Shown here piece after piece: positions 2,644-3,759 of a stretch of 64,000 nucleotides of DNA; the stretch's first letter is position 1; every line of letters begins with the position of its first letter. The position numbers and the translations under genes are program-made. The DNA comes from Escherichia coli (GTDB lineage: Bacteria > Pseudomonadota > Gammaproteobacteria > Enterobacterales > Enterobacteriaceae). The stretch lies in the NCBI RefSeq assembly GCF_003018255.1, contig NZ_CP027440.1, one strand, 5' to 3'. The notes under the pieces were generated by a model that saw only the letters and a list, made by a program, of their open reading frames with translations, was not told where the DNA came from and searched no databases.

Positions 2644-3759
2644 TCATATTCTCAACAAAACACTTTTTAATGCCTTTGCGAATTCATCCAGACTTATATT
2701 GTCAATTTTTTGCCCAACGACGACTGACTCCGAAACATCGGCCATTGCGGGCCATCGCGTTTTGTAATCAGCATAAATTGCAACAACAGGGGTATTATAG
2801 GCACTTGCCATATGTAATATTGAGGTGTCAGGAGTTATTGCAATATAAGCATCTTTTATGATTGCTGCTGAACGTTTAATCGAGGGTGATAAGGATAAAC
2901 GGTAGACATTATTATAACAATCCACTAATGCCCTGGCTTTATCTTCCCCTTTGGGTCCATAAACGATCACTATTGGAATATCTGTTTCACTTTGAATTTT
3001 TGCTATTAGATTTTCTGCAATCGATAATGAAAATGTACGTTCCTGCGAGCTACCGTCTAAATTGAGCGCAATGTAAGATCCTAACGATCGCATTTCCTCG
3101 CGTACCTCATCGAGTACATCATCGCTTAATGGCAATTCATATATTGACCTGACTGCCGGAAAACCCGCCTCACGCATCATAAATGCCCATGTCATGGGTA
3201 CAGGAGCCCGGAGATTCTGATCCATCCGGGACGCGTTCTTACACAAAGGGGAATAGCACTTCATGGTTAAACCGACGACCTAGAAATTCGTTTTTGCTTT
3301 CAACTGACTGATAAATATCATCGTTTTCAGGTTCTTTTTACGCATCGCCTCTATACAAAGATCCGGCGTACCGTATTGCAGTGTTATGTTCTTCGCTAAA
3401 TCTTTTATTTCTTTTAATGTTGCGTGATCCTGCATAGTCATTGTGACTAATGTTAATTTAGTCTGTTCAAGTTTGAGCGCATTAAAGACTTCTAAATTAA
3501 TTGTCGACGTAACAATTAATAGATGCTTAATTTTATGCAATTCAAGCGCCCGAATAACAGGAAAGATAGCCATAGCATCGCCAATCTGATCGGGAATATG
3601 TATGACAATAAAGTCTGTTTTTTCAATATTAAAATTATAAGCTTTATAATCGTAGTAACTAAATGCAATACGTCTCAACAATGATACTAAAAACATAACT
3701 AACCTCGCCTCCCTACTGGTTATAATGCAATGCAGTCTATCAGAATCATCAGGGTGCAA
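2644..3759 (-). pseudogene. yeeL: Putative heptosyltransferase (GT9 family) pseudogene, split into two ORFs
   Basis: Adjacent minus-strand ORFs 3280-3759 and 2644-3264 in different frames together resemble an ADP-heptose:LPS heptosyltransferase-like protein. Confidence 0.65.

Follow-up and report, generated by a model that had tools for sequence, protein, structure and literature searches.

The enzymes closest in kind to the one considered here are the glycosyltransferases of CAZy family GT9, among them WaaC, WaaF, and WaaQ. As is known from WaaC and WaaF, GT-B catalysis requires both domains, which surround one cleft. Heptosyltransferase-like enzymes encoded beside an adhesin gene are also known, with AAH and TibC (BAHT family) as examples. 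In Escherichia coli K-12, the yeeL locus has been described as a pseudogene annotated in two parts, yeeL_1 and yeeL_2 (PMC4390576). The RefSeq entry for the K-12 copy reads “glycosyltransferase family 9 protein, internal stop” and places it between yeeJ and shiA. We found no functional study of yeeL in the literature, where the K-12 pseudogene appears only as a neutral integration or landmark site. The locus described below is compared with these known cases.

In the window (i.e., the whole 64,000-nucleotide stretch of E. coli DNA that was analyzed), the genes run in the order mtfA, asnT, a yeeJ remnant, yeeL, shiA, amn, and yeeN, followed further on by cob, pdu, his, gnd, and O-antigen genes. 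The gene under study lies between yeeJ and shiA, at the locus that bears the name yeeL in K-12. It is orthologous to K-12 yeeL (95.9% nucleotide identity with W3110), is likewise convergent with yeeJ and divergent from shiA, and is also knocked out by one in-frame nonsense codon. The two copies differ, however, in the lesion itself, which arose independently in each (Q235*, a TAA codon, in K-12 and Q139*, a TAG codon, in the window).

Two minus-strand open reading frames (ORFs) lie side by side at this locus, at positions 2644 to 3264 (206 amino acids) and 3280 to 3759 (159 amino acids when counted from a TTG), as an earlier sequence-only reading had noted. That reading had assigned them to different frames, which proved incorrect: the ORF ends at 3264 and 3759 are both multiples of 3, which places the ORFs in a single frame, and one in-frame TAG separates them. 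Its suggestion that the pair jointly spans a GT9-like protein was confirmed: reading through positions 2644 to 3696 on the minus strand gives 350 codons, and the translation matches an intact GT9 protein of E. coli with 98.6% identity over residues 1 to 350 (tblastn). The features of the locus are as follows.

2644 to 3696, minus strand: complete GT9 glycosyltransferase reading frame of 350 codons, closed by a TGA stop and interrupted once, as obtained by translation and in agreement with the RefSeq coding sequences of orthologous loci.
3280 to 3282, minus strand: in-frame amber TAG at codon 139, the sole inactivating lesion; all other alleles examined have CAG (Gln) here.
3283 to 3696, minus strand: N-terminal fragment, codons 1 to 138, with most of the N-terminal Rossmann domain, including the invariant IGD motif (G39, D40).
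2644 to 3264, minus strand: downstream ORF of 206 amino acids from internal Met145, with the last conserved N-domain segment and the complete nucleotide-sugar domain of the C terminus (PDTSILHMASA motif).
3697 to 3759, minus strand: 5′ leader outside the gene, an extension of the ORF back to TTG; orthologue annotations begin at the ATG equivalent to 3696.

Because the RefSeq annotation of orthologues and the aligned N termini of the family agree on this point, we place the true start of the gene at the ATG at 3696 and not at the TTG at 3759. The reach of the ORF to the TTG is an artifact of mechanical ORF calling, and this extension falls within the divergent yeeL-shiA intergenic region (3697 to 4010).

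Codon-by-codon comparison with intact alleles revealed a single disruptive change, the replacement of CAG by TAG at codon 139 (positions 3282 to 3280), which converts Gln139 to an amber stop. The codon was CAG in all 26 of the comparison alleles sequenced. The compared alleles all have a length of 1053 nucleotides, and no indel or frameshift was found relative to the intact ones. The frameshift that the sequence-only reading had expected an alignment with intact GT9 genes to locate is thus not present, and the break is a nonsense substitution. The nearest intact allele, WP_000480495.1 (B2 type), has the same length and gene context as the window copy and differs from it at 7 of 1053 nucleotides; it carries CAG at codon 139, and the further amino acid differences are V30I, T164A, and A348L.

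The description of the product as a heptosyltransferase-like GT9 protein was borne out by Pfam family PF01075 and by a GT-B structural model. Scores against PF01075 (Pfam GT9; threshold, 22 bits) were 30.8 bits for the C-terminal ORF in the window and 29.7 bits for the intact orthologue, and an AF2 model of the intact orthologue showed a two-Rossmann GT-B fold (pLDDT 82, pTM 0.80). The best Foldseek matches in the PDB were 3tov (GT9), 1psw (WaaF), and WaaC, with E-values of 1e-13 to 1e-11; the structural matches to the LPS core heptosyltransferases WaaC, WaaF, and WaaQ had TM scores of 0.63 to 0.71 at 12 to 15% sequence identity. Features in common with WaaC, WaaF, and WaaQ are the GT-B fold, a PF01075 score above threshold, and the C-terminal nucleotide-sugar motif D-T/S-x-x-x-H, which aligns with “TNDSGLMHVAAA” of WaaF, and D40 is probably equivalent to Asp13 of WaaC. 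In contrast to the Waa enzymes, to which it is only 12 to 15% identical, yeeL is a dispensable gene separate from the waa cluster and is frequently found inactivated. Against all of the LPS core heptosyltransferase equivalog models (those for heptosyltransferases I, II, and III and for RfaC, RfaF, and RfaQ), the protein scored below the NCBIfam cutoffs, with values of 37.9 versus 185.3 for TIGR02193, 19.2 versus 134.6 for TIGR02195, and 16.2 versus 170.2 for TIGR02201. Because the Pfam and fold matches hold but the equivalog scores are far under the cutoffs, the protein is a GT-B enzyme of the GT9 family and not an LPS core heptosyltransferase equivalog, and the label “heptosyltransferase” would apply at the family level. 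Artificial alphaRep proteins topped the PDB profile search and were ignored as chance matches to an IGDxxAVxPLIxxL repeat.

Full-length homologues of YeeL were found in Escherichia albertii (66% identity), Pseudocitrobacter (65%), Erwinia (60 to 63%), Rosenbergiella (53%), and Halomonas (36%). An alignment of 19 homologues contained 59 invariant columns, including the neighborhood of Gln139; G39 and D40 in the N-domain and P289, D290, T291, and H295 in the C-domain were invariant. The family is small, with 496 of 1.84 billion cluster representatives recovered at an E-value of ≤1e-3, many of them fragments.

The distribution of the two stop alleles was assessed with 55-nucleotide queries in which the variable base was at position 28, so that every 28-nucleotide megablast seed spans the single nucleotide polymorphism. 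The TAG-specific 55-mer had no match among the 5,426 complete E. coli RefSeq genomes, whereas the control 55-mer with CAG and identical flanks matched 2,092 of them. The K-12 lesion (CAA to TAA at codon 235) was found in 771 complete genomes; BL21 and numerous laboratory derivatives are among its carriers. At codon 235, the window copy reads CAA and K-12 reads TAA; at codon 139, the window copy reads TAG and K-12 reads CAG. Gene states were sampled in 30 records taken at even steps down a ranking of 5,344 matching records: 17 were intact, 6 carried the K-12 stop, 1 had a stop at codon 60, 1 had a 10-bp deletion, 4 were interrupted by IS1 (two verified at different sites and two judged from the feature list alone), and 1 lacked the gene. 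In JNE120442, the closest relative over 8 kb (98.3%) and one of these 17, the GT9 gene is intact at equivalent coordinates, and the yeeJ remnant is as in the window.

Since none of the 5,426 genomes carries the TAG allele, the K-12 stop is a different one, and the gene is intact in JNE120442, Q139* is recent and derived. It is confined to a small clonal lineage, and the species has undergone at least six independent inactivations, this one included. More generally, the gene is polymorphic, with recurrent independent losses, and about half or more of E. coli genomes retain it intact. The pseudogene status assigned to the window copy stands, as the GT9-like gene at the yeeL locus is disrupted by the TAG at codon 139. 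We consider it very probable that this copy is an ordinary, recent, lineage-private nonsense pseudogene (i.e., a null allele) of a dispensable, AT-rich accessory GT9 gene.

Several other explanations of the interrupted frame were weighed. The sequence-only reading had taken the locus for a frameshifted pseudogene and a conserved relic in common with K-12, and it is true that K-12 annotations split yeeL into yeeL_1 and yeeL_2 and that the K-12 copy carries a pseudogene flag in RefSeq. The codon-by-codon comparison nonetheless refutes this reading, and we rate a shared relic as highly improbable, given one frame without an indel over the 1053 nucleotides compared with intact alleles, a K-12 lesion that is also a nonsense codon yet lies at codon 235 and not 139, a window lesion found in none of the complete genomes, an intact gene in 17 of the 30 sampled genomes, and purifying selection on the intact alleles. 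A sequencing or assembly error in an intact gene was also weighed, as the stop is one base away from a common allele. We attach almost no probability to this, because the same stop and the same two fragments occur in an independent Logan assembly (SRR13450396) that is 99.98% identical to window positions 1222 to 6264 (5 kb). In addition, the exact 138-amino-acid N-terminal fragment is recorded on 63 contigs and the 206-amino-acid fragment on 11 to 12 contigs from NCBI, ENA, and Logan, and the 138-amino-acid product has been deposited as the hypothetical protein EQT95752.1 of E. coli HVH 194.

Two further possibilities would preserve a function despite the stop, through programmed recoding or through two functional proteins, and we found no support for either. 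If the UAG were read through or recoded by a programmed mechanism, full-length enzyme would still be produced; the remainder of the frame is undamaged, and UAG can be suppressed in suppressor-tRNA strains. A recoding site would be expected to be conserved, however, and here TAG occurs in 0 of 5,426 genomes, with CAG in every one of the 26 comparison alleles. A 121-nucleotide RNA segment that takes in the stop and the sequence downstream of it showed no stronger folding than shuffled sequence did (z = +1.11), the window encodes no tRNAs other than tRNA-Asn, and we know of no system in E. coli that decodes UAG as a sense codon. Read-through of this kind is accordingly very unlikely, and frameshift recoding is unnecessary because both ORFs lie in one frame. 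Split GT-B enzymes do occur in nature, as in eukaryotic Alg13 and Alg14, and the two pieces could in principle form such an Alg14/Alg13-like enzyme, with the C-terminal piece made by termination-reinitiation at Met145: an in-frame ATG lies 15 nucleotides past the stop, and the downstream ORF retains a complete C-domain. Against this, the break falls inside the N-domain after the strand at residues 136 to 139, off the domain boundary, and leaves the conserved segment at residues 147 to 178 on the wrong piece, and residues 139 to 144 would go missing. No Shine-Dalgarno-like sequence was found ahead of the Met145 ATG, and the same split is seen in 0 of the 5,426 complete genomes. We give a split enzyme as little credence as read-through.

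We therefore return to the simple null allele. A single C-to-T transition turned the CAG codon of Gln139 into amber TAG, so that translation should stop after 138 residues and yield an N-domain fragment without the segment at residues 147 to 178 and without the C-domain. In the AF2 model and the 19-sequence alignment, residue 139 is the end of a β-strand (residues 136 to 139) within the N-domain, ahead of the strongly conserved segment at 147 to 178. The 138-residue piece would keep the putative catalytic G-D loop but not the nucleotide-sugar site, and the ORF from Met145 would keep the sugar-nucleotide domain but lack most of the acceptor domain. Because GT-B catalysis needs both domains and the stop separates them, the enzyme should be inactive and the allele should be null. 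Low-level amber read-through, or reinitiation at Met145 15 nucleotides past the stop, may occur. Q139* is one among many independent knockouts of a dispensable gene that was probably acquired horizontally and is probably poorly expressed.

The intact gene appears to be functional, and its alleles are under purifying selection. Pairwise dN/dS values (Nei-Gojobori) among seven intact alleles from different lineages ranged from 0.09 to 0.37, with one near-identical pair being uninformative. A dN/dS of about 0.2 reflects looser constraint than in typical core genes, and the intact alleles are therefore perhaps only weakly useful. The base composition of the gene (38.3% GC; 36% GC at third codon positions [GC3]) differs from that of shiA (50.6% GC; GC3, 52%). 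This AT-rich composition fits horizontal acquisition and probable poor expression, which would account for frequent loss. Predicted promoter hits at the locus were not above those in shuffled sequence, and an Rfam scan returned tRNAs only.

Homologues of the gene occupy different chromosomal positions in different lineages. In E. albertii, the homologue (locus L006 of CP117647.1, positions 6001 to 7059) lies between tonB and yciA; in another Escherichia genome (locus L021 of CP089930.1, positions 5001 to 6059), it lies between hchA and mtfA; and in Erwinia persicina (locus L005, positions 6001 to 7113), it follows an MFS transporter gene. Judging from these positions, there has evidently been more than one relocation or acquisition of the GT9 gene. 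The locus in the window also looks mosaic: its yeeL allele is nearest to the B2-type WP_000480495.1 (7 nucleotide differences), the flanking 8 kb is nearest to JNE120442, and the yeeL alleles of JNE120442 and the window differ at 38 positions. This pattern suggests recombination within or around the gene.

Like AAH and TibC, YeeL is encoded next to an adhesin gene, in this case that for the inverse autotransporter YeeJ. TibC was absent from the PDB sequence and profile search results and from the 50 Foldseek matches listed. We rejected as unsupported the idea of YeeL as a dedicated, AAH/TibC-like glycosyltransferase of YeeJ. The synteny does not hold beyond E. coli, as the homologues in E. albertii, Erwinia, and another Escherichia lineage are not beside autotransporters, and the states of the two genes do not covary: in K-12, yeeJ is intact and yeeL is broken, and AHB18 and JNE120442 show the reverse.

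In the window, yeeJ (positions 549 to 2382, plus strand) is a remnant that, relative to the 7,077-nucleotide K-12 gene, lacks about 5.3 kb of its middle, the Ig-like repeat region. The junction is near position 1397, and the two leftover pieces are in different frames; JNE120442 has the same yeeJ layout together with an intact yeeL. A strong terminator-like hairpin (positions 2404 to 2427, plus strand; a 10-bp stem that includes 6 GC pairs and has a T-run behind it) is located just past the yeeJ stop, in the convergent yeeJ-yeeL intergenic region. On the other side of the locus, the amn ORF (positions 5273 to 6883, plus strand) has a mechanical start at 5273 that overlaps the end of shiA. Because orthologue annotations start at the equivalent of 5429, the overlap is not real and the long ORF is an upstream extension. 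Four tRNA-Asn (GTT) genes are found within 12.5 kb (236 to 311, 8395 to 8470, 10219 to 10294, and 12628 to 12703), in the asnT/W/U/V arrangement typical for the region. The pdu (propanediol utilization) operon, at about 19900 to 33400 on the plus strand, adjoins the cob genes. Window positions 16000 to 36000 are covered at ≥80% in 636 of 5,426 complete E. coli genomes, and the pdu region is therefore an accessory island in the species.

The sample of 30 genomes contained at least six lesion types, with about 40% of copies disrupted, and yet the intact alleles are under purifying selection. On this basis, recurrent yeeL loss could be read as favored by selection in some niches and not as neutral decay, with Q139* as one more adaptive null allele. 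We regard this as unlikely; if it were true, the enzyme might modify a glycan on the cell surface that acts as a phage receptor or immune target.

Overall, the window copy is an unremarkable null allele of an accessory gene that E. coli can do without, and it matters very little alone; copies of this kind are already marked as “internal stop” pseudogenes by annotation pipelines. The view of the gene as a conserved relic does not extend to E. coli as a whole: the statement that yeeL is a pseudogene is true for K-12 but not for the species, as the majority of sampled E. coli genomes keep an intact, constrained gene. The many natural null alleles are potential ready-made controls for probing the function of this orphan GT9 enzyme.
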